64,000 bases of DNA, from NCBI GenBank assembly GCA_965250085.1, contig OZ252287.1, positions 832,001 through 896,000 on the forward strand. The letters run 5' to 3'. Made by a program: the position numbers and the translations under genes. Source of the DNA: Candidatus Altimarinota bacterium (GTDB lineage: Bacteria > Patescibacteriota > Gracilibacteria > CAIRYL01). This document shows positions 22,704 through 30,749 of the stretch, piece by piece (within the stretch, counting starts at the first letter, position 1; every line of letters begins with the position of its first letter). The notes below the pieces were generated by a model, which was not told where the DNA came from, did no database searches, and was given only the letters and a program-made list of their open reading frames with translations.

Positions 22704-24077
22704 ATGCAAAAACAGTATAAAACCGTTACCGATGTCGCCGGACCGCTCCTAATTGTAGAGCTTCCAAAAGACGCCAGTGTAAAGTACGAAGAGCTGGTAG
22801 AAATCTCTCTCCCGAATGAAAAACGGGTAAGATTGGGAAAGGTCCTTGAGTCATCAGAAGGACGTGCTGTCGTACAGGTATTTGAGTCGACATCTGGCAT
22901 TCCTGTAGAAGGAACCAAGGTGCAGTTTCTCGGAGAATCTCTCAAGATAGGAGTATCTGATCAGATGCTCGGCAGAGTATTTAGTGGAATTGGACGACCT
23001 ATCGATGGAGGAGGAGATATCATTGCTGAGCAAAAAGTAGACATCAATGGGTCATCTATTAATCCAGCATCTCGTGAATTTCCAAATGACTTTATTCAGA
23101 CCGGTATTTCTTCACTTGATGCCATGAACACACTGGTACGTGGACAGAAGCTTCCGATCTTTTCTGGAGCAGGATTGCCTCACAATCGTTTGGCTACGCA
23201 AATCGCACGTCAGGCAAAAGTGCGTGATGGAAGCTCATTTGCCGTAGTGTTTGCTGCCATGGGAGTGACTTTTGAAGAAGCGCAGTATTTTCAAAAAGAA
23301 TTTGAAAAAACTGGTGCACTTGAAAACGCAGTGCTCTTTATCAACACTGCTGCTGACCCGGTAGTAGAACGTATTGCAACTCCTCGTATAGCCCTTTCCA
23401 CAGCTGAATATCTTGCTTTTGAAAAAGGAATGCACGTACTCGTAATTCTCACAGATCTCACCAACTATGCTGAAGCACTTCGTGAGGTATCTGCGGCGCG
23501 TAAAGAAGTCCCCGGTCGACGTGGATATCCAGGATATCTCTATACCGACCTTTCTACTCTCTATGAACGAGCAGGGCGAATCAAAGGAAAAGACGGATCT
23601 GTGACACAAATCCCTATTCTTACCATGCCAGAAGATGACATTACTCATCCTATTCCGGATTTGACGGGATATATCACCGAGGGGCAATTTGTAATCGATC
23701 GAGGATTGGCGAAGTCAGGACTGTTACCTCCTGTTGATGTGCTCAAATCTCTTTCCCGCCTTTGGTCTGCCGGAGTAGGAGAAGGGAAGACTCGTGAGGA
23801 TCATTCTGGAGTCAAAGACCAACTCTTTGCCAGCTATGCTCGTGGAAAAGATGTAAGAGAGTTGGCCGTAGTATTGGGAGAATCTGCACTGGATGAAAGC
23901 GACAAGGCTCATATGAAGTTTGCTGAGCAGTACGAAGAAAAATTCATCAACCAAGGAGAATATGAAGAACGAACCATCGAGGAAACACTCGAACTCGGTT
24001 GGGAACTCCTCAAAATGATCCCCAAGGCAGATATGAAACGGGTGAAGCCAGATATGGTGAAGAAGTATATGAAGTAG
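22704..24077 (+). CDS. ntpB: V/A-type ATPase subunit B
   Basis: [36 protein letters not shown]. Confidence 0.98.
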
Positions 24078-24117: not shown

Positions 24118-24142
24118 GTAGGGACGTGCCACAACACGTCCT
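24118..24142 (+). repeat. GTAG-type REP-like hairpin
   Basis: GTAG GGACGTG ccacaa CACGTCC. Confidence 0.6.
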
Positions 24143-24173
24143 TTTTAGGATTATATTTTTTATGAGAATTTAC

Positions 24174-24205
24174 TTGACAATAAGATTTTTATAAGTTTAA
24201 ATAAT
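24174..24205 (+). promoter_or_regulatory. Putative promoter of the four-gene module
   Basis: Perfect TTGACA at 24174 followed by an AT-rich -10 region (ttaaataat). Confidence 0.4.
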
Positions 24206-24253
24206 CTCCTTTTTAAATATACCGTGAGCTGCGAAAATAGGGTATTTACTACA

Positions 24254-25084
24254 ATGGCAAATGTAAATAAATTCATTGTAAAAGAGCTTGGATCACCTGA
24301 GAGATTTAATGGTCATGAAACGGAGCTAATCCATGAATACCAAACCATGTCTCAGAGCTCTGAGTATGAGCTTCTTCTTTCCTCTTCTCAAGAAGCTATA
24401 TCTCAAATGCGATCAGGGGAATGGAGTGAGGTTTCTCTCACAGAATTTGGAGTAACTCTGACCCAAGTATTGAGAACATACTATTACGAACGTCATACTC
24501 AGGAGCAAATGCGCACACTTCAAAAAGAATTTGCTGAGAGGGCTATTGCAGCAAATAAATACTTTTTTGTACTTTGGGAACAACTTGCTAACAAAAAAAG
24601 AGCTCAACGAGAAAAGATACATGCTCTTTCAAAAGAAACTCGTGAAAAACTGGATCAAAATCCATACCTTCTCATAACTCTCAAAGCGGTGGTGGAAGAC
24701 TTAAAAAGTGAAGGTTTTGAGCTTTTAAATCCAGAAATATTAGAAATACCAGTATCACAGGTGCTCACAAAAGGGGTCCATGTTGTTGCTGAAAACACCG
24801 AAGGTGAACAAAGAGAAGTGTGGCTCTATCTTCCTGGAGGAAAGATAAAAACAGCAGTACATGCAGCTCCAGATAAAGACTATGAAATATGTAAAACCCT
24901 CGCAAGAACTTTTGCTGAAAGAGTCGCCGAAATAATCGGAGAAGGAAGTAGAAGCTTGGGAACGCCTTTCACGGTGAGCATTGGACCTGGTAATCCTATA
25001 GGTAAGAGTTTTCAAAGAAATGAAAAGTCTGTTGCAGTGCCTCAAGTGCCCCCAGATCCTTCTCCGTCTTCTTCATCTGTATAA
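24254..25084 (+). CDS. Hypothetical helical/coiled-coil protein with a small alpha/beta C-terminal domain
   Basis: ORF 24224..25084, start placed at ATG 24254; ends 3 bp before the radical SAM gene. Confidence 0.7.
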   Translation: MANVNKFIVKELGSPERFNGHETELIHEYQTMSQSSEYELLLSSSQEAISQMRSGEWSEVSLTEFGVTLTQVLRTYYYERHTQEQMRTLQKEFAERAIAANKYFFVLWEQLANKKRAQREKIHALSKETREKLDQNPYLLITLKAVVEDLKSEGFELLNPEILEIPVSQVLTKGVHVVAENTEGEQREVWLYLPGGKIKTAVHAAPDKDYEICKTLARTFAERVAEIIGEGSRSLGTPFTVSIGPGNPIGKSFQRNEKSVAVPQVPPDPSPSSSSV

Positions 25085-25087
25085 ATC

Positions 25088-25690
25088 ATGAAAGAACAAT
25101 TTTTGAATGTAGCGGCATTTGAACCATGCACCAAAGTGCATGGTCCTGGAACAAGATTTGCTCTTTGGCTGCAGGGATGTCCTTTGAGATGTACTGGCTG
25201 CACAAATCCTGAAATGCTTGATGTGGACAAAGAAGCTCAGAGGGTATCACCTCGAGAAGTGAATGTACTCATCAGGAAAGCGATGGAATGTGTGCTTCCT
25301 ATGGAAGGAATTACTGTTATGGGAGGGGAGCCAACATCTCAAGCCGAGGCTCTCTTTCCTGTTTTAAAATATGCACAACAAGCAGGGTTGAACTCGCTTG
25401 TTTTTAGTGGATTTACACTAGGGCAATTGCGGAACAGGAGAGATCCAGCCATAGAAGATCTCTTGGGCCTCACGGACACTCTTATTGATGGTCCGTATAT
25501 TGCAGCTCTTCAAGATCCAGAGCTTATTCGTGGATCAACTAATCAGCAAATTATTCACCTTACAGATGCCTTAGAAAGAAGAGATTTTTCTCGGAGAAAT
25601 GGAGAACATTCTATCCAGATGGGGATAGGTGGTGTGAGTGTCAGTCAAAGCGGATTTTTTCCCGGCGATCTTTCTCCATCTGCCACATGA
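25088..25690 (+). CDS. Radical SAM protein, NrdG/activating-enzyme-like
   Basis: GPG.R..LW.QGCPLRCTGC.NP, GIT..GGEP, SG.T, LIDGPY, RGS.NQ. Confidence 0.9.
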   Translation: MKEQFLNVAAFEPCTKVHGPGTRFALWLQGCPLRCTGCTNPEMLDVDKEAQRVSPREVNVLIRKAMECVLPMEGITVMGGEPTSQAEALFPVLKYAQQAGLNSLVFSGFTLGQLRNRRDPAIEDLLGLTDTLIDGPYIAALQDPELIRGSTNQQIIHLTDALERRDFSRRNGEHSIQMGIGGVSVSQSGFFPGDLSPSAT

Positions 25691-28600
25691 ACCAAGCAGA
25701 AGTAACTCGGCGAGATCAGTTTGTACCAGTTGTAATTGACACACTTACTGCGTTTGATCCTGCGCTCTGTATGCATGGCGATCTGGAAGATGGAATTTTT
25801 CATGGAAATGCGAGAAGTGATGTGCGCGATTCTCTTCTCAAAAACATTGTCCGTACAGAAAGTGATGAGGCAAAGAAGTATGACTATGTGCTCGTATATA
25901 ACGCTGCTACAAAGCGTATCGAGTTTGGTGATGAACTTTGTGATTTTGAGGATGTAGATCAATACATGAGAGAGGATTTTATGAAAGAAGAAATAGTTCT
26001 CAGTAATGGAAGTCAAGATGAGGTGGGAGTTATAAATCGTCTTATTGATCCAGATATTGTGTCTCCTAGTATGAGTTCTATTCCTGACAAATCGGTTCTT
26101 CGTATGGTGGAGATGCTTTTGAAAAAAGGAAAAACAATATGCCTGGTGATAGATGAAGCGAATGAATTTATCCCCCAAGAAAACAAACAGGTATCTGCTT
26201 CGGAAAGCGTCCATAACGAGGCTCTGGTAGTTGATTTGGTACGAAAACTCAAACAACATGAAAATGCCCACCTGATATTGCTCGACAGAGCCAACACTGT
26301 GAATGGAAGATTGCAACGTGAAATACCATTCCATGCAATGCCAGCAAGTACTCGAGCAGACGTAGAAGATATTTTGAGAGATCATATTTCACCAGGGAAC
26401 CTTTCCACAGCAATTGCACTCTCAACAAGAACTCGAATTTCTGATTTGGTGAGACTCGTGGATAGAAAAGGAGGAGATGAGGAAGAGCTCTTGGATTCAC
26501 TTATTTCATTTCGTGCTCAGCAAATTGTAAAGATGGGGGGCGGAATACTTGAATCTTCAGTATCAGGTGTCGCCGATAAAGAAATCGCAATACAACTTGA
26601 AGCGAGAGAGTATTGGGAACGACTTGGAGAATCTTTTTTAAAAAATCCAGACCTCATTCCCAATGGAGTGATTATCATAGGACCTCCAGGAACCGGAAAA
26701 AGTATCATTCCCAAATGGATTGCTTCTCGACTCAAGGTTCCGTATATCAAGCTCAAAGAAATAGGTACCGAAGGACTTGCTGGCAGAAAGCTTCAAAAGA
26801 TAAAGCAAGCGCTTGAAACAATACGATCCCAAAGACCATGTGTAGTGCACATAGATGAAATAGATAAAATGTTTCCAAAAAAACAAGACCTTCAAAGCAA
26901 CAATGATGATGAAGCACGAGCGTATTTGCAAGACAGAATTTCCGACGATGAATTTATGAGTGGGGTTATACTCATTGGAACGAGTAATGACCCTGACCAT
27001 ATGGATTTTCCCATGCTCAGAAGTGGTCGATTTGGAGATATGGTAGCCATGATGCCTCCCCAAACGCTGGAGGAGAAAATACTTCATTTTAAGGCAGTAT
27101 GGCATCAGCTTCCCTCTATTGAGAAAAATGAAATACTGCTCCCTGGTGATGAGTTTATTAGAGCTCTTGTGAGCCAAACTCCTGAACATGCTACTGGTGC
27201 AAATTTTAAAGCTTTCCTCCAAGAATGTCTCAGAGAGTTCCTTCAAGATAGTTCTGATTATGCTACCTTCAACGAAGTCCTTATAAGAAAAATCTCTCAT
27301 TTTGAAAATCGATTTCCAAGAGATCCACGATATAAAGATCAGTGTGAAAAAGCTTTGAGAATGCATAACGCATTTTCTTTTCGAGAAAATAGTGAAGATG
27401 ATGAAGTTAGTACAGAAACTTTACAAATGTTAGCACTCGAAGCTGCTCAAACAGGATTAACTGATGGAGCTGAAGAGCTTCAAACCTTACTTCAGAAAAC
27501 AGATAAAGTAAGAACAGATATTCTTACAGGTGCACCAGAGTTAGAAGCACTTATTGCAAAGAAGACCTGTCTTTTGGAAGAACAAGAAGTAGCTGTAGAT
27601 GTTGCCAAAAAAGAAGAAAGTAAGCTCAAAAAAATTGTGAGCAAACTTCAAGGATCGAAAAAACAATTAGAGAAAACTCTCGCAGGCCTTAACGATGAAA
27701 TTGCCAAAAGAGTAGAAGCAGATACCGCAGAAGCAAGATCAGCAATAGAAGAGCAAGTTCGTGAAAGGATTGCTGAAGAGATGGAAAAAGTGGAGTTTGC
27801 TGAAACAGAACTTTCTGCCCTCAGAGATGAAGTCCAGGAAAAAGAGTGTGATGTTCGAGAGCTTATAGCTGACCTGGAAGCGAGATCAAAGCAACTCCAA
27901 AGTGAAGCGCAAAGATTGCAGTCTCTGTTGTCCCAAAGCGCCTATCTAGGAGAAGAACCAGATGGACTTGCAGATATTTTGGACACTATTGAAAGACTAC
28001 TTGCCGACCAAGTCGCAGGTTTGCAGCAAGCGAGAGAGGTTCAAGCATCTCTCAGGAGTGATGAAGAACAAAGAGCAGCAGATTTTTTGCTCCGAGTAGT
28101 AGAAACTGGGCAATACCTTCAGCAATCTTCAGGTGCTATGCGGAAAATATTGGATAAGATTGCCGATATCAATACTGTACGAGATACCAAAGGTAAAAAC
28201 CTTCTTATGATTGCATTGGACAGAGAAAAAAGTGATGATGATAAGCAAATTTTAGAATTTGCAAATGTTCTTTGCGAGAGGGGGCTTGAAGTGGATACCA
28301 AAGACAACAACGGAAGAACAGTTCTGATGTTAGCAGCTCGAAATTTTTTGGAAGTTACAAATTATTTACTGCTTGATCAAAACGCTTCGATAGATGCACA
28401 GGACAAATTAGGGAATACTGCTCTTATGTACGCCTCCTTATCTATGAATGCGGAAACAATTAACTTTTTAAGAAGTCACAATGCTGATATAAATAAGATA
28501 CACACTTCTGGAGACACCGCTCTTATGATATTACTAAAAAGAAAAAACGATAAAAAATTATTAATTTGTATGGACGCCTTTTTTGCATCACATGAAACAA

Positions 28601-29130
28601 TAGATGTTCTTCGCAAAGCTTTAGGTACAAGTGATATAGCCTCCTATTATGATCACATATATCAAGAAGCATCCAAATTTGGCATCAATCTATACAGATA
28701 CTGTAACGAGATTACCAGCAGAAGATCCATAGAAGATCTTTCAAATGCAAAGGAGGATACACTCTTGCAACTTTGGGACAAGAGATTTCATGTGGAAGAA
28801 CTCCCTGTTTTGGATCTGAGTATAAGAGATGGCGACAATGAATCTTGCTTTACCATTGCTCTAAGAAAACTCTCTGGTAGTAAGAAGAATGCTTATGAAT
28901 CGCTATGGCGAAGGACAGTACATGATTTAATAGATCAAGGAGCTCTAGAATTTGTACAAGCTGACCTCAGGCAACTAGTGCAAAATAATGAGTTGACAGT
29001 GATTGAATGTCTAGATAAAGAGATGCCTATTGATAGCGATGTTATACTTTCTATTTCCTCTGATCCCGATCTTGAGGAACACCTGGATGATTCAATGATG
29101 ACCGCATTAGATAATATCACATTAGCATAA
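25687..29130 (+). CDS. AAA+ ATPase fused to a coiled coil and ankyrin repeats
   Basis: Walker A GPPGTGKS, Walker B HIDEID, arginine finger LRSGRF; earlier Walker-B-like LVIDEA; ankyrin units GKNLLMIA, GRTVLMLA, GNTALMYA, GDTALMIL; ATGA overlap with the radical SAM gene. Confidence 0.9.
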   Translation: MNQAEVTRRDQFVPVVIDTLTAFDPALCMHGDLEDGIFHGNARSDVRDSLLKNIVRTESDEAKKYDYVLVYNAATKRIEFGDELCDFEDVDQYMREDFMKEEIVLSNGSQDEVGVINRLIDPDIVSPSMSSIPDKSVLRMVEMLLKKGKTICLVIDEANEFIPQENKQVSASESVHNEALVVDLVRKLKQHENAHLILLDRANTVNGRLQREIPFHAMPASTRADVEDILRDHISPGNLSTAIALSTRTRISDLVRLVDRKGGDEEELLDSLISFRAQQIVKMGGGILESSVSGVADKEIAIQLEAREYWERLGESFLKNPDLIPNGVIIIGPPGTGKSIIPKWIASRLKVPYIKLKEIGTEGLAGRKLQKIKQALETIRSQRPCVVHIDEIDKMFPKKQDLQSNNDDEARAYLQDRISDDEFMSGVILIGTSNDPDHMDFPMLRSGRFGDMVAMMPPQTLEEKILHFKAVWHQLPSIEKNEILLPGDEFIRALVSQTPEHATGANFKAFLQECLREFLQDSSDYATFNEVLIRKISHFENRFPRDPRYKDQCEKALRMHNAFSFRENSEDDEVSTETLQMLALEAAQTGLTDGAEELQTLLQKTDKVRTDILTGAPELEALIAKKTCLLEEQEVAVDVAKKEESKLKKIVSKLQGSKKQLEKTLAGLNDEIAKRVEADTAEARSAIEEQVRERIAEEMEKVEFAETELSALRDEVQEKECDVRELIADLEARSKQLQSEAQRLQSLLSQSAYLGEEPDGLADILDTIERLLADQVAGLQQAREVQASLRSDEEQRAADFLLRVVETGQYLQQSSGAMRKILDKIADINTVRDTKGKNLLMIALDREKSDDDKQILEFANVLCERGLEVDTKDNNGRTVLMLAARNFLEVTNYLLLDQNASIDAQDKLGNTALMYASLSMNAETINFLRSHNADINKIHTSGDTALMILLKRKNDKKLLICMDAFFASHETIDVLRKALGTSDIASYYDHIYQEASKFGINLYRYCNEITSRRSIEDLSNAKEDTLLQLWDKRFHVEELPVLDLSIRDGDNESCFTIALRKLSGSKKNAYESLWRRTVHDLIDQGALEFVQADLRQLVQNNELTVIECLDKEMPIDSDVILSISSDPDLEEHLDDSMMTALDNITLA

Positions 29131-29149
29131 AACACTTTTTTAAACTCCC

Positions 29150-29608
29150 ATGACCACTGATACATACACTCCTGAAAGAACTAGAGACTTGCTTGAACCA
29201 GATGTACTTGCAGAAGTAACGAGGCCTCACCTGCCCGTAACAAAAATATCTCATCAGTCTATAATGGCTTTTCTGCAAAGCAAACTGGGAACAGAAGTGA
29301 GAGAATCTATTTCTGAGTTTTCATCTGCGCAACTACGAAAAAGCTCCTCATTTGAACCGGGGATAGAACTCGTTGCTCAAGATTCCACTCCCTTCGGTGA
29401 AATGATATTTTATGATGCCGGCACAACCGATGCTCCAGAATTACCTTTTTACACCCAGGTAATTGATATTCCCAGTGGGGAGGTAAATGCTGCAATAATA
29501 TTTTTGCTGTTGAGAGAAAAATTGGATGAATTTTTAGCATCTTCTCAAAATCCAGATATCGGTGATATTTCTTATCTCGTAAGAAAAGTTCGAGCGTTTT
29601 TGTCTTAA
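29150..29608 (+). CDS. Hypothetical protein, 152 aa
   Basis: ATG ORF 19 bp after the AAA gene, same strand. Confidence 0.65.
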   Translation: MTTDTYTPERTRDLLEPDVLAEVTRPHLPVTKISHQSIMAFLQSKLGTEVRESISEFSSAQLRKSSSFEPGIELVAQDSTPFGEMIFYDAGTTDAPELPFYTQVIDIPSGEVNAAIIFLLLREKLDEFLASSQNPDIGDISYLVRKVRAFLS

Positions 29609-29732: not shown

Positions 29733-30749
29733 ATGTCACATAAACATAAAGATTGGACAAGATATGGGATCAAGCCCAAGTATGCGGATAAAAAATATCC
29801 CAAAGTTTTTGATACCATCATCATTGGTGCTGGGCCCGCTGGAATGACCTCTGCAGTGTACGCAGCACGGCGAAAAATGAAGATTTTGCTTATCTGCGGA
29901 GACAAGATAGGAGGACAAATGCAATGGTCATCTGATATTGAGAATTATACTGGAGTAAAAAAAATAACCGGTCCAGGACTTACGGATCGATTTTTTCATC
30001 ATGTGCATCATATAGAAAAAGATATAGAAAATTTTGATCTCTGGGTTCGAAAAAAGGAGCTCGTGACAGGTGTAAAGAAAAATTCAGACAATACTTTCAC
30101 CGTTACTACTTCTGCTGGAAAATCATTTGAGACAAAAACGCTCATTATCACAGCGGGAAAAGTGCCACGAACACTTGGAATTTCTGGAGAAGAAGTTGCC
30201 ATGCAGGGGAATGGACTTTCTTTTTGTGCCACATGTGATGCCCCACTGTATAAGGACAAAAAAATGGCAATCATTGGAGGGGGCAATTCTGCTATGGATG
30301 TCGCATTGCAACTCAATACTCTGACAGATGACATTACACTTTTTACAGATATCGGTCACTTAACGGGAGAGGAAGTTCTTGAAGAAAAACTGCTCAATAA
30401 TTCACATATAGATATAAAATATAATGTTGATGTCAAAGAGATATTGCTGGATGAAAAATATCAAGTGCGTGGTCTCCGATATTCTGAAAAAGGATCGAAA
30501 GAAAAAGAATTTGTGTGCGAAGGTATCTTTGAGGAGATCGGACAATTGCCTGCTACAAATTTTCTCAGCGAATTTATTGAGCTCAACAAAAAAGGAGAAA
30601 TTCCTATTGATAAAAAGTGTAAAACCTCTCTCTCAGGCGTATTTGCCGCAGGAGATGTCACCGATGAAATTCATAAGCAGATTGTCGTTGCAGCTGGACA
30701 AGGAGCCATCGCTGCGCTGGAGGCCCATGAGTATGTGTTGAAGTTGTAA
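29733..30749 (+). CDS. trxB: Thioredoxin reductase / AhpF C-terminal-like disulfide reductase
   Basis: GAGPAG, GGQ, CATCD, GGGNSA, FAAGDVT. Confidence 0.88.
   Translation: MSHKHKDWTRYGIKPKYADKKYPKVFDTIIIGAGPAGMTSAVYAARRKMKILLICGDKIGGQMQWSSDIENYTGVKKITGPGLTDRFFHHVHHIEKDIENFDLWVRKKELVTGVKKNSDNTFTVTTSAGKSFETKTLIITAGKVPRTLGISGEEVAMQGNGLSFCATCDAPLYKDKKMAIIGGGNSAMDVALQLNTLTDDITLFTDIGHLTGEEVLEEKLLNNSHIDIKYNVDVKEILLDEKYQVRGLRYSEKGSKEKEFVCEGIFEEIGQLPATNFLSEFIELNKKGEIPIDKKCKTSLSGVFAAGDVTDEIHKQIVVAAGQGAIAALEAHEYVLKL

Follow-up and report, generated by a model that had tools for sequence, protein, structure and literature searches.

A triad of a small protein, an activase-type radical SAM enzyme and an AAA+ ATPase in Gracilibacteria-class genomes: a possible relative of FtsH-type ternary conflict systems

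ORF (open reading frame) calling in a 64-kb window of the genome of Candidatus Altimarinota bacterium (64,000 nucleotides, positions 832,001 to 896,000 of contig OZ252287.1, assembly GCA_965250085.1) delineated four ORFs, all on the + strand, that we call g1 to g4. Three of them, which encode a small protein of no named family (g1), a radical S-adenosylmethionine (radical SAM, rSAM) enzyme of the activase type (g2) and an AAA+ ATPase (g3), make up a triad that is co-inherited, translationally coupled, rare and patchy in its distribution. We put at about even the chance that this triad is a stand-alone relative, apparently devoid of MoxR and vWA components, of the rSAM-bearing FtsH-type ternary conflict systems, with g1 as the likely substrate. 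This reading is supported by synteny, a clade of rSAM enzymes particular to the triad, the nature of g2 (activase-like, yet not an NrdG), the pairing with AAA+ proteins, patchiness, and a link to a predicted conflict system. A role in defence would be argued by analogy, from the contexts in which relatives are found and not from the window locus.

The genes are tightly spaced: 3 bp separate g1 from g2, g2 and g3 overlap by 4 bp (ATGA), and g4 follows g3 after a gap of 19 bp. An earlier note on this DNA had described this arrangement of four co-directional genes and had located it between ntpB and trxB; the ORF calls agree with it on both counts (Table 1). The co-occurrence in other genomes on which its proposal of a module depended was found as well. 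Genes for a g1-like protein, an rSAM enzyme and a g3-like ATPase stand in fixed order, on one strand and with tiny gaps, at seven loci (the window locus, L097 in genome G097, L096 in genome G372, L098, L099, L100 and L101); at an eighth, L115, the contig ends inside the rSAM gene. A g1 homologue lies directly upstream of the rSAM gene in all eight g1-bearing loci, and a g3 homologue lies directly downstream in seven. Identities to the window proteins are about 20–38% for g1, 41–49% for the rSAM enzyme and 27–39% for g3. The g1 of G372 is too diverged to be found by tblastn with the window g1, and the L098 copy links the two (1e-43 to G372). The rSAM enzymes of the triads form one clade (7/7 rows, SH-aLRT 93), with a local support of 93 in a 102-row FastTree phylogeny.

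How widespread is this unit? The system-specific N-terminal domain of g3 was detected in three of 401 genomes of the class (the window genome, G000, with G097 and G372) and in none of the 19 genomes of the same family or order; g1 was detected in one of 401 genomes of the phylum. The g2 family is large: a word-index search gave 107 matches, and a single scan of species-representative genomes confirmed 557 stretches, the best 80 of which (L013–L092) were retained. L013 alone among these 80 carries homologues of g1 and g3 as well; it is a metagenome-assembled genome titled Candidatus Gracilibacteria and is placed in the window's class as G097. The loci L098, L099, L100, L101 and L115 were added by scanning metagenomes with the rSAM subclade; a similar scan that used the alignment of the g3 N-terminal domain produced 273 pattern matches, none of which was confirmed.

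The fourth gene does not belong to this unit. Searches with g4 returned only the protein itself, both among 5.8 billion proteins and in the word index; it has no match in Pfam, NCBIfam, PADLOC or PHROG, tblastn finds no counterpart at the related loci, and profile comparison reveals no remote homology to fvmX5 or to the long g3 homologue of L013. Its codon score (0.247) is the lowest of the four, as compared with 0.203 in one antisense frame, and is compatible with coding. As judged from these searches, g4 is an ORFan outside the conserved unit. Thus, g1 to g3 of the proposed four-gene module are conserved, but g4 is absent from the other loci. Because relatives of g4 are absent and the ankyrin repeats of g3 occur in the window copy only, the conserved unit is the triad, with an ATPase whose C-terminus varies.

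The central question concerns g2: is it merely the activase of an anaerobic ribonucleotide reductase? The protein has every hallmark of the activase type of the radical SAM superfamily, namely the cluster motif, the GGE motif and a Fer4_12 domain (E 3e-27, 96 bits against a cut-off of 22). Both the cysteines of the cluster motif (Table 1) and the GGEP motif (G79 G80 E81 P82) are invariant in 20 family members. The best named families are NrdG and PFLA, and the nearest solved structure is that of E. coli PflA (3c8f, E 2.6e-17). An alignment shows that a GPGxRF motif before the cluster is common to g2 and PflA; this motif would contact the peptide substrate. Beyond the shared fold, g2 has a C-terminal extension of about 40 aa, with conserved D166, F167, R169 and G189.

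The reading of g2 as an ordinary NrdG that works for an anaerobic ribonucleotide reductase, with neighbours that are there by accident, would accord with its top-scoring named family and with the source annotations of its homologues, which read NrdG. Its scores, however, are low. Against the NrdG model TIGR02491, g2 reaches 88.1 bits (E 5e-25), under the curated equivalog cut-off of 126.1; against the PflA family it reaches 68.2 bits (E 7e-19; cut-off 231.75). As controls, two viral rSAM enzymes from NrdD-holding records scored 140.4 and 132.1 bits with TIGR02491. Twelve other rSAM enzymes, for which no NrdD was seen in the record or locus and which are mostly encoded beside an AAA+ ATPase, scored 62–119 bits. 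Scores for rSAM enzymes of the other triads were 94.7–102.3 bits.

The genomic evidence points the same way. The window genome is a closed single contig of 1,368,807 bp (97.14% complete), in which the g2-family hidden Markov model finds g2 as its sole match. It contains no match to NrdD (PF13597; the control was positive in 6/14 genomes) and none to the Gly_radical domain (PF01228; control positive). The earlier note had called g2 an orphan activase on the strength of the window; the description holds for the whole genome. An NrdD-like ORF occurs in the flanks of none of 136 cellular loci of the family; of the 80 viral loci that the family profile retrieved, 59 have one. Finally, in a tree of 102 rows, seven of them from triads (FastTree, midpoint root, no bootstrap), all 44 NrdD-linked rows split from every triad, FtsH-type and type-D row, with a branch support of 91. 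Grouping with true NrdG, which the earlier note had set beforehand as the outcome that would refute its proposal, was thus not seen. Because the TIGR02491 score is low, NrdD is absent and the clade stands apart from the NrdD-linked NrdGs, g2 is a paralogue that derives from NrdG but is not the activase of an anaerobic ribonucleotide reductase. With the synteny of g1 and g3 kept in 7–8 loci besides, the identification of g2 as an ordinary NrdG is refuted, and we attach next to no probability to it.

The ATPase, g3, is built around an active domain of the classical AAA clade. Its Walker A (GPPGTGKS, residues 332–339), Walker B (DE, 390–391), sensor-1 (N434) and second-region-of-homology arginines (R445/R448) are intact and invariant in six homologues. 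Profile comparison with hhalign aligns this domain to the D2 domain of the FtsH-ternary ATPase with a probability of 99.6 (E 4e-24); when the full g3 profile is used, the alignment remains confined to the AAA domain. The N-terminal domain that precedes it has no match in Pfam, PHROG or the PDB. It contains Walker-B-like (CLVIDEA) and sensor-1-like (HLILLDRxNxVNG) remnants and no P-loop. Against the FtsH-ternary D1 domain and against its own D2 the hhalign probabilities are 0.2 and 1.7; these insignificant alignments set the remnants opposite the corresponding D1/D2 motifs, a hint that the domain may be a degenerate AAA domain.

Downstream of the AAA domain, the protein continues with a charged helical linker that is presumably coiled-coil-like, a set of ankyrin repeats and 190 final residues that are unannotated; PHROG has no match for the C-terminus, and a Pfam search found no M41 peptidase on g3. 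The ankyrins invite a rival explanation, the role in host interaction that the earlier note had thought plausible, namely that g3 is a host-interaction effector, an ankyrin protein acting on a host cell, as a weak similarity to Legionella Ank effectors (22–27 bits against cut-offs of 500–600) might also suggest. None of the five other g3 homologues that are complete or almost so (those of L013/L097, L096, L098, L100 and L101, 729 to 1340 aa long) has an Ank match, however, and the part of the module that is conserved is an rSAM enzyme of cytoplasmic type together with an ATPase. No secretion signal or secretion system came to notice, though no search was aimed at one. We consider the effector explanation very improbable. 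The comparison of homologues indicates that the repeats are a lineage-specific C-terminal module. Since they are confined to the window g3, they do not constitute a general specificity device, contrary to what the earlier note had supposed.

If g2 modifies a protein, what would that protein be? The likely candidate is g1. The earlier note had begun the module at an ATG at 24254; we place the start of g1 at a GTG at 24224, where the N-terminal 'MS' is near-invariant (at least 90% of 31 family members); an 'MSC' N-terminus is common to several close homologues. The protein has no family above cut-off in Pfam, NCBIfam, PADLOC or PHROG, and a word-index search with g1 found only g1 itself. An eight-sequence profile, run against 1.84 billion representatives, brought together a family of 36 representatives (33 at E ≤ 1e-10). 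Nearly all are 244–349 aa long, and none bears a family name. Near-invariant residues are M1, S2, A55, L72, G76, F114, W118, G164, G184 and C223.

An AlphaFold2 model of g1 from 31 sequences (pLDDT 90.1, pTM 0.73) has a flexible N-terminus, a helical N-terminal part with a 50-residue helix at 93–144, and a beta-hairpin at 70–79 with the near-invariant L72 and G76 at the turn. An alpha+beta domain (147–244) that contains C223 follows, and the tail is disordered from about residue 250. This tail diverges rapidly between copies. One family member, P0120, has tryptophan at many columns of conserved glycines (G76, G164 and G184 among them) and a tail SWIWRW in place of SGxGxG. This pattern is the one expected if the organism reads TGA as glycine and the gene had been translated with TGA as tryptophan; in-frame TGA codons also occur in the rSAM matches of some relatives in the class (G030).

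These observations suggest a candidate mechanism. NrdG and PflA abstract a hydrogen atom from a protein. By analogy, g2, with the help of SAM and its [4Fe-4S] cluster, would do the same to a protein or peptide. The best candidate for its substrate would be g1 because it is co-translated with g2, is structured with flexible ends, and has an invariant glycine at a hairpin turn and a near-invariant cysteine. For its part, g3 may work as a hexamer, a remodelling motor by which the substrate is gated, delivered or unfolded, and its variable C-terminus (ankyrins in the window copy) could be the part that senses or binds a target. The module would most likely act in conflict or defence, be it abortive or anti-invader.

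The relatives of g2 provide the contexts for this proposal. Most stretches of the family come from Planctomycetota and Myxococcota, where the operon reads RtcA, rSAM, fvmX6, fvmX5, AAA+M41, fvmX3-analog, fvmX7; the protein with AAA and M41 peptidase domains has about 730 aa and the fvmX7 protein about 1080 aa. A census of 136 family loci counted 65 of FtsH type, that is, with the Pfam FtsH ternary system domains (fvmX5/6/7, X3-analog) and an AAA+M41 ATPase, 33 of a type that we call D, 8 triads and 30 with none of these, some of which are short contigs. Type D comprises L139 (2549–7534), L123 (2614–7591), L131, L116 and about 29 further metagenome loci. Its operon encodes a classical AAA protein (about 535 aa), two proteins of unknown family (621 and 253 aa) and an rSAM enzyme, and it has no match in PADLOC 2.0 beyond AAA matches at the level of IetA/TRIP13. 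The type-D rSAM enzymes form their own clade (support 99). Among the 48 well-flanked loci (at least 4.5 kb on either side), 29 have a classical AAA gene on the same strand within 5 kb; by type, the fractions are 3/3 for triads, 7/7 for type D and 19/26 for the FtsH type.

Several individual loci widen this picture. In L117 and L135, a larger ATPase (921 and 872 aa, the former with LRR repeats) is followed directly by a protein of about 255 aa and an rSAM enzyme. In L042 (153–8561) and L087 (18–8582), the rSAM gene comes after one for a ClpB-like AAA_2 ATPase and stands directly downstream of Mokosh-like genes (MkoA, E 5.5e-105, and a weak MkoB-like match); these two loci represent a defence island or else a composite system. 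L112 (3–7597) has a co-directional series of a tubulin-like protein (Tubulin_2, 969 aa), two unknown proteins (884 and 471 aa) and a divergent rSAM enzyme of the family. In the IMG/VR loci L154, L160, L173 and L174, on contigs classed as viral or in some cases proviral, an rSAM gene of the NrdD-less branch adjoins a classical AAA ATPase gene, so that mobile elements, too, may carry the pairing.

The same survey bears on a different explanation, in which the rSAM enzyme acts on a nucleotide or an RNA end and the AAA+ protein and g1 are the sensor or regulator of a conflict system. Viperin-like enzymes make a modified nucleotide or lesion, and a viperin-like activity is what this explanation envisages. 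In 26 of the 80 genome loci (the best 80 of the 557), the gene immediately upstream of the rSAM gene encodes RtcA (RNA 3'-phosphate cyclase), an arrangement that is very common in Planctomycetota and hints at a link of the family to nucleic acids or nucleotides. RtcA and the rSAM enzyme persist in L043 (6918–8636) although FtsH-type genes, and any AAA+ gene, are absent there; the RtcA–rSAM–alpha/beta-hydrolase arrangement of L043, from which the FtsH-type genes are missing, recurs in L023 and L050. In L034 (7956–9311), the rSAM enzyme is fused to a calcineurin-like metallophosphoesterase; in L123, a DEDDh exonuclease gene follows the rSAM gene; and g2 itself has weak matches to QueE and pVip (E 0.003–0.005). 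On the other side, NrdG (5e-25) and PflA (7e-19) are far closer to g2 than is QueE (about 3e-3), and the GPGxRF motif next to the cluster is common to PflA. Moreover, the window genome is without RtcA, and no gene for a nucleic-acid enzyme adjoins the module at triad loci. We judge a nucleotide or RNA substrate to be unlikely.

Could the triad instead be a housekeeping unit? In that case, chaperone-assisted rSAM activation or modification of g1, as a new small glycyl-radical or otherwise modified protein, would serve the organism's own anaerobic metabolism. The setting of the module bears on this explanation. Directly 3' of the ntpB stop codon is a GC-rich hairpin with a 9-bp stem ahead of TTTTT (RNAfold). 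The earlier note had taken it for a REP-like hairpin. It has no genomic repeat family at four or fewer mismatches (one self match and one other); its uniqueness in the genome speaks against a REP element. It looks like an intrinsic terminator of the ntp operon that marks the 5' boundary of the module; the terminator scan did not report it. As for a promoter of the module's own, the TTGACA hexamer that had been put forward is present, but the promoter scan revealed no excess over shuffled sequences (11 promoter-like sites vs. 13.8 ± 3.8) and did not list this hexamer. The stretch was found in four sequencing runs, all from one sample and one study that may be its source; no RNA run with the stretch was listed.

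Table 1. Features of the g1–g4 locus, in window coordinates.
Feature	Position	Strand	Basis or remark
ntpB (V-ATPase B subunit gene)	22704–24077		upstream flank of g1–g4
GC-rich hairpin and T-run	24120–24146	+	GGGACGTG-CCACAA-CACGTCC, then TTTTT
TTGACA hexamer, possible -35 box	24174–24179	+	TTTAAA or TAAATA 17–18 nt downstream
g1	24224–25084	+	ORF, 286 aa
g2	25088–25690	+	ORF, 200 aa
CxxxCxxC [4Fe-4S] cluster motif of g2 (C31, C35, C38)	25178–25201	+	invariant in 20 family members
g3	25687–29130	+	ORF, 1147 aa
N-terminal domain of g3 (about residues 1–320), system-specific	25687–26646	+	homologue alignments
Active classical-clade AAA domain of g3 (residues 328–451)	26668–27039	+	Pfam AAA, 5.7e-26
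Charged helical linker of g3 (about residues 575–800)	27409–28086	+	weak SMC/ASRP-type matches, E 0.0038 and 0.00028
Ankyrin repeats of g3 (about residues 817–955)	28135–28551	+	Ank_2 4.9e-13, Ank 3.6e-11
g4	29150–29608	+	ORF, 152 aa
trxB-like gene	29733–30749		downstream flank of g1–g4

The module thus sits amid housekeeping genes as its own terminator-bounded unit, as the housekeeping explanation would have it. The codon-usage scores of g1 to g4 (0.25–0.31) are highest in the called frame and compare with a mean of 0.298 (sd 0.071) for the long ORFs of the genome; their GC contents are 0.39–0.44, vs. 0.401 genome-wide. Marks of mobile elements and, at the triad loci, defence neighbours are wanting. 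What speaks against this explanation is the distribution, given above: only 3 of 401 genomes of the class, none of the 19 of the same family or order, and 1 of 401 of the phylum. In addition, divergence is rapid in the g3 C-terminal modules and in the g1 tail, and sister clades occur in predicted or known defence contexts (the FtsH ternary systems; beside Mokosh genes). We regard a housekeeping role as distinctly improbable.

The trxB-like gene downstream carries an extended -10-like element of its own, TGGTATAAT. It has a 35%-identical paralogue elsewhere in the genome (G000:C1:398276–399175), and its close homologues (58–64% identity) are restricted to some relatives. Homologues of ntpB and trxB are adjacent in none of 20 relatives, and so no clean insertion site can be demonstrated.

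The proposal that the triad is a MoxR/vWA-less relative of the ternary systems must also be weighed against a number of observations, among which are the frequent RtcA neighbour, the L043 arrangement and the L034 fusion described above. At the locus itself, no tRNA, integrase signature, flanking direct repeat or tandem repeat was found in the flanks of the module, and its composition matches that of the genome (GC 0.40). Around the triad loci stand a V-ATPase operon, trxB and genes for an ABC-transporter binding protein and an SLH protein; no recognisable defence island was found at these loci. The check for a known defence system was negative: no system in PADLOC-DB 2.0 had all of its core proteins matched, and the matches were at the level of domains (IetA for the AAA domain, PDC-M72A for the Ank repeats and pVip at E 0.0048; none for g1 or g4). 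Within the wider family, 12 of the 48 well-flanked loci lack a classical AAA gene nearby, and the accessory proteins of the different system types, g1 and the g3 N-terminal domain included, have no detectable mutual homology. Indeed, hhalign probabilities lay within 0.2–3.1 for g1 (2- and 31-sequence profiles) against fvmX6 and fvmX5, and likewise against the type-D 253-aa and 621-aa proteins and the FtsH-ternary D1; for the g3 N-terminal domain they were 0.1–3.0 against the FtsH-ternary D1/D2, its own D2, and the type-D and fvmX proteins. As for g1, a Foldseek search of its model against the PDB gave no match at E ≤ 0.001, the best result of an exhaustive VIA search (Z 6.8 over 85 residues) falls in the range that the notes of that tool count as common background, and its profile found nothing meaningful among PDB sequences. 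None of g1, g3 and g4 matches Gly_radical (PF01228) at E ≤ 0.1. A tail motif, SG[VLF]G[RKH]G, is found in about half of the g1 family, and the window copy has only IGPGNPIG.

A broader proposal would dispense with the known glycyl-radical fold altogether. According to it, the NrdG-derived clade would have ceased to serve ribonucleotide reductase and, with AAA+ unfoldases (FtsH-like, ClpB-like, two-domain), would place a radical or a modification derived from one on small proteins dedicated to that end, of which g1 would be an example. A new class of conflict systems that modify proteins by radical chemistry would then have the triad as its minimal form, and g1 would be a new radical-bearing or radically modified protein unrelated to the ten-stranded-barrel glycyl-radical enzymes. 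We give this proposal a low probability.

What would be gained from settling the matter? To our knowledge, the characterised enzymes this close to NrdG or PflA all act on a large metabolic enzyme, on which they generate a glycyl radical. The whole rSAM clade described here (more than 550 loci in one scan of species-representative genomes) is without such a partner and is instead associated with AAA+ ATPases, in operons of several types. The triad is its smallest and cleanest version: three genes, with no MoxR, vWA, RtcA or peptidase detected. It raises the question of what a protein-activase-type rSAM enzyme does in a conflict system and why an unfoldase is needed. The answer would bring to light either a radical SAM reaction or a kind of protein radical that is new, and it would open a first way into the function of the FtsH-type ternary systems.

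It remains to compare the triad with named systems. With IetAS (an AAA ATPase and a serine protease), it shares only a domain-level resemblance, in that the g3 AAA domain matches IetA models (1.4e-11); it has no IetS protease. The resemblance of g2 to pVip is likewise at the domain level only; its score with the NCBIfam viperin model (15.5 bits, E 0.0074) is far under the cut-off of 180, and g2 is thus not of the viperin type. Type D (33/136 loci) has the same composition in outline, an NrdG-derived rSAM enzyme with a classical AAA protein and two proteins of unknown family; it differs in gene order, in its accessory proteins and in its rSAM clade. With NrdG and PflA, g2 shares the fold family (it aligns to positions 2–153 of the 154 of the NrdG model) and the CxxxCxxC, GGE and GPGxRF motifs, whereas its scores under the curated cut-offs, its separate clade, its C-terminal extension of about 40 residues and the lack of any glycyl-radical enzyme in the window genome set it apart.

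The closest comparison is with the simple FtsH ternary system, a MoxR-vWA-FtsH conflict system predicted in silico by Kaur et al. (eLife 2020; PMC7159879). That paper describes the simple type as having a distinctive stand-alone radical SAM enzyme together with an FtsH-type AAA+ ATPase; the enzyme is taken as the likely modifier of a peptide effector, and the vWA domains of these systems are described as highly divergent. In the literature searched, the sole account of this rSAM clade was a single sentence of PMC7159879, itself an in-silico prediction. That literature contained no paper on a MoxR/vWA-less rSAM–AAA+ triad or on a general rSAM–AAA+ pairing, although the figure source data of PMC7159879 may list related neighbourhoods. 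Within that literature, the earlier note's description of a candidate undescribed system holds for the triad form but not for the rSAM family and its pairing with FtsH-type AAA+ proteins, which PMC7159879 had predicted.

There are several differences from the FtsH ternary system, the first two of which belong with the observations that count against kinship. No MoxR (PF07726) match above cut-off exists in the window genome; one sub-threshold match (23.9 bits) lies about 110 kb away, and none of g1 to g4 is MoxR-like. VWA_2 has no match in the window genome, with the proviso that such vWA domains are highly divergent. Without MoxR, and apparently without a vWA component, the triad does not fit the definition of the ternary systems. 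Of the four Pfam families of the system (fvmX5, fvmX6, fvmX7 and fvmX3-analog), fvmX5/6/7 have no match in the window genome, with the caveat that the control for the fvmX7 model was positive nowhere; RtcA was not found in the window genome either. In place of an M41 peptidase, g3 has its coiled-coil-like linker and variable C-terminus, and g1 and the g3 N-terminal domain have no detectable homology to fvmX proteins or D1. Lastly, the triad occurs in small-genome organisms of the Gracilibacteria class, not in Planctomycetota or Myxococcota. There are also similarities. Both have system-specific small proteins beside the rSAM enzyme and a patchy distribution, and in both an active classical AAA domain follows an N-terminal region of about 300 residues. 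The stand-alone rSAM family is also the same: g2 is 37–48% identical over its full length to the rSAM enzymes of fvmX operons, and the triad and FtsH-type rSAM clades are sisters in one group, supported at 99, that stands apart from type D.

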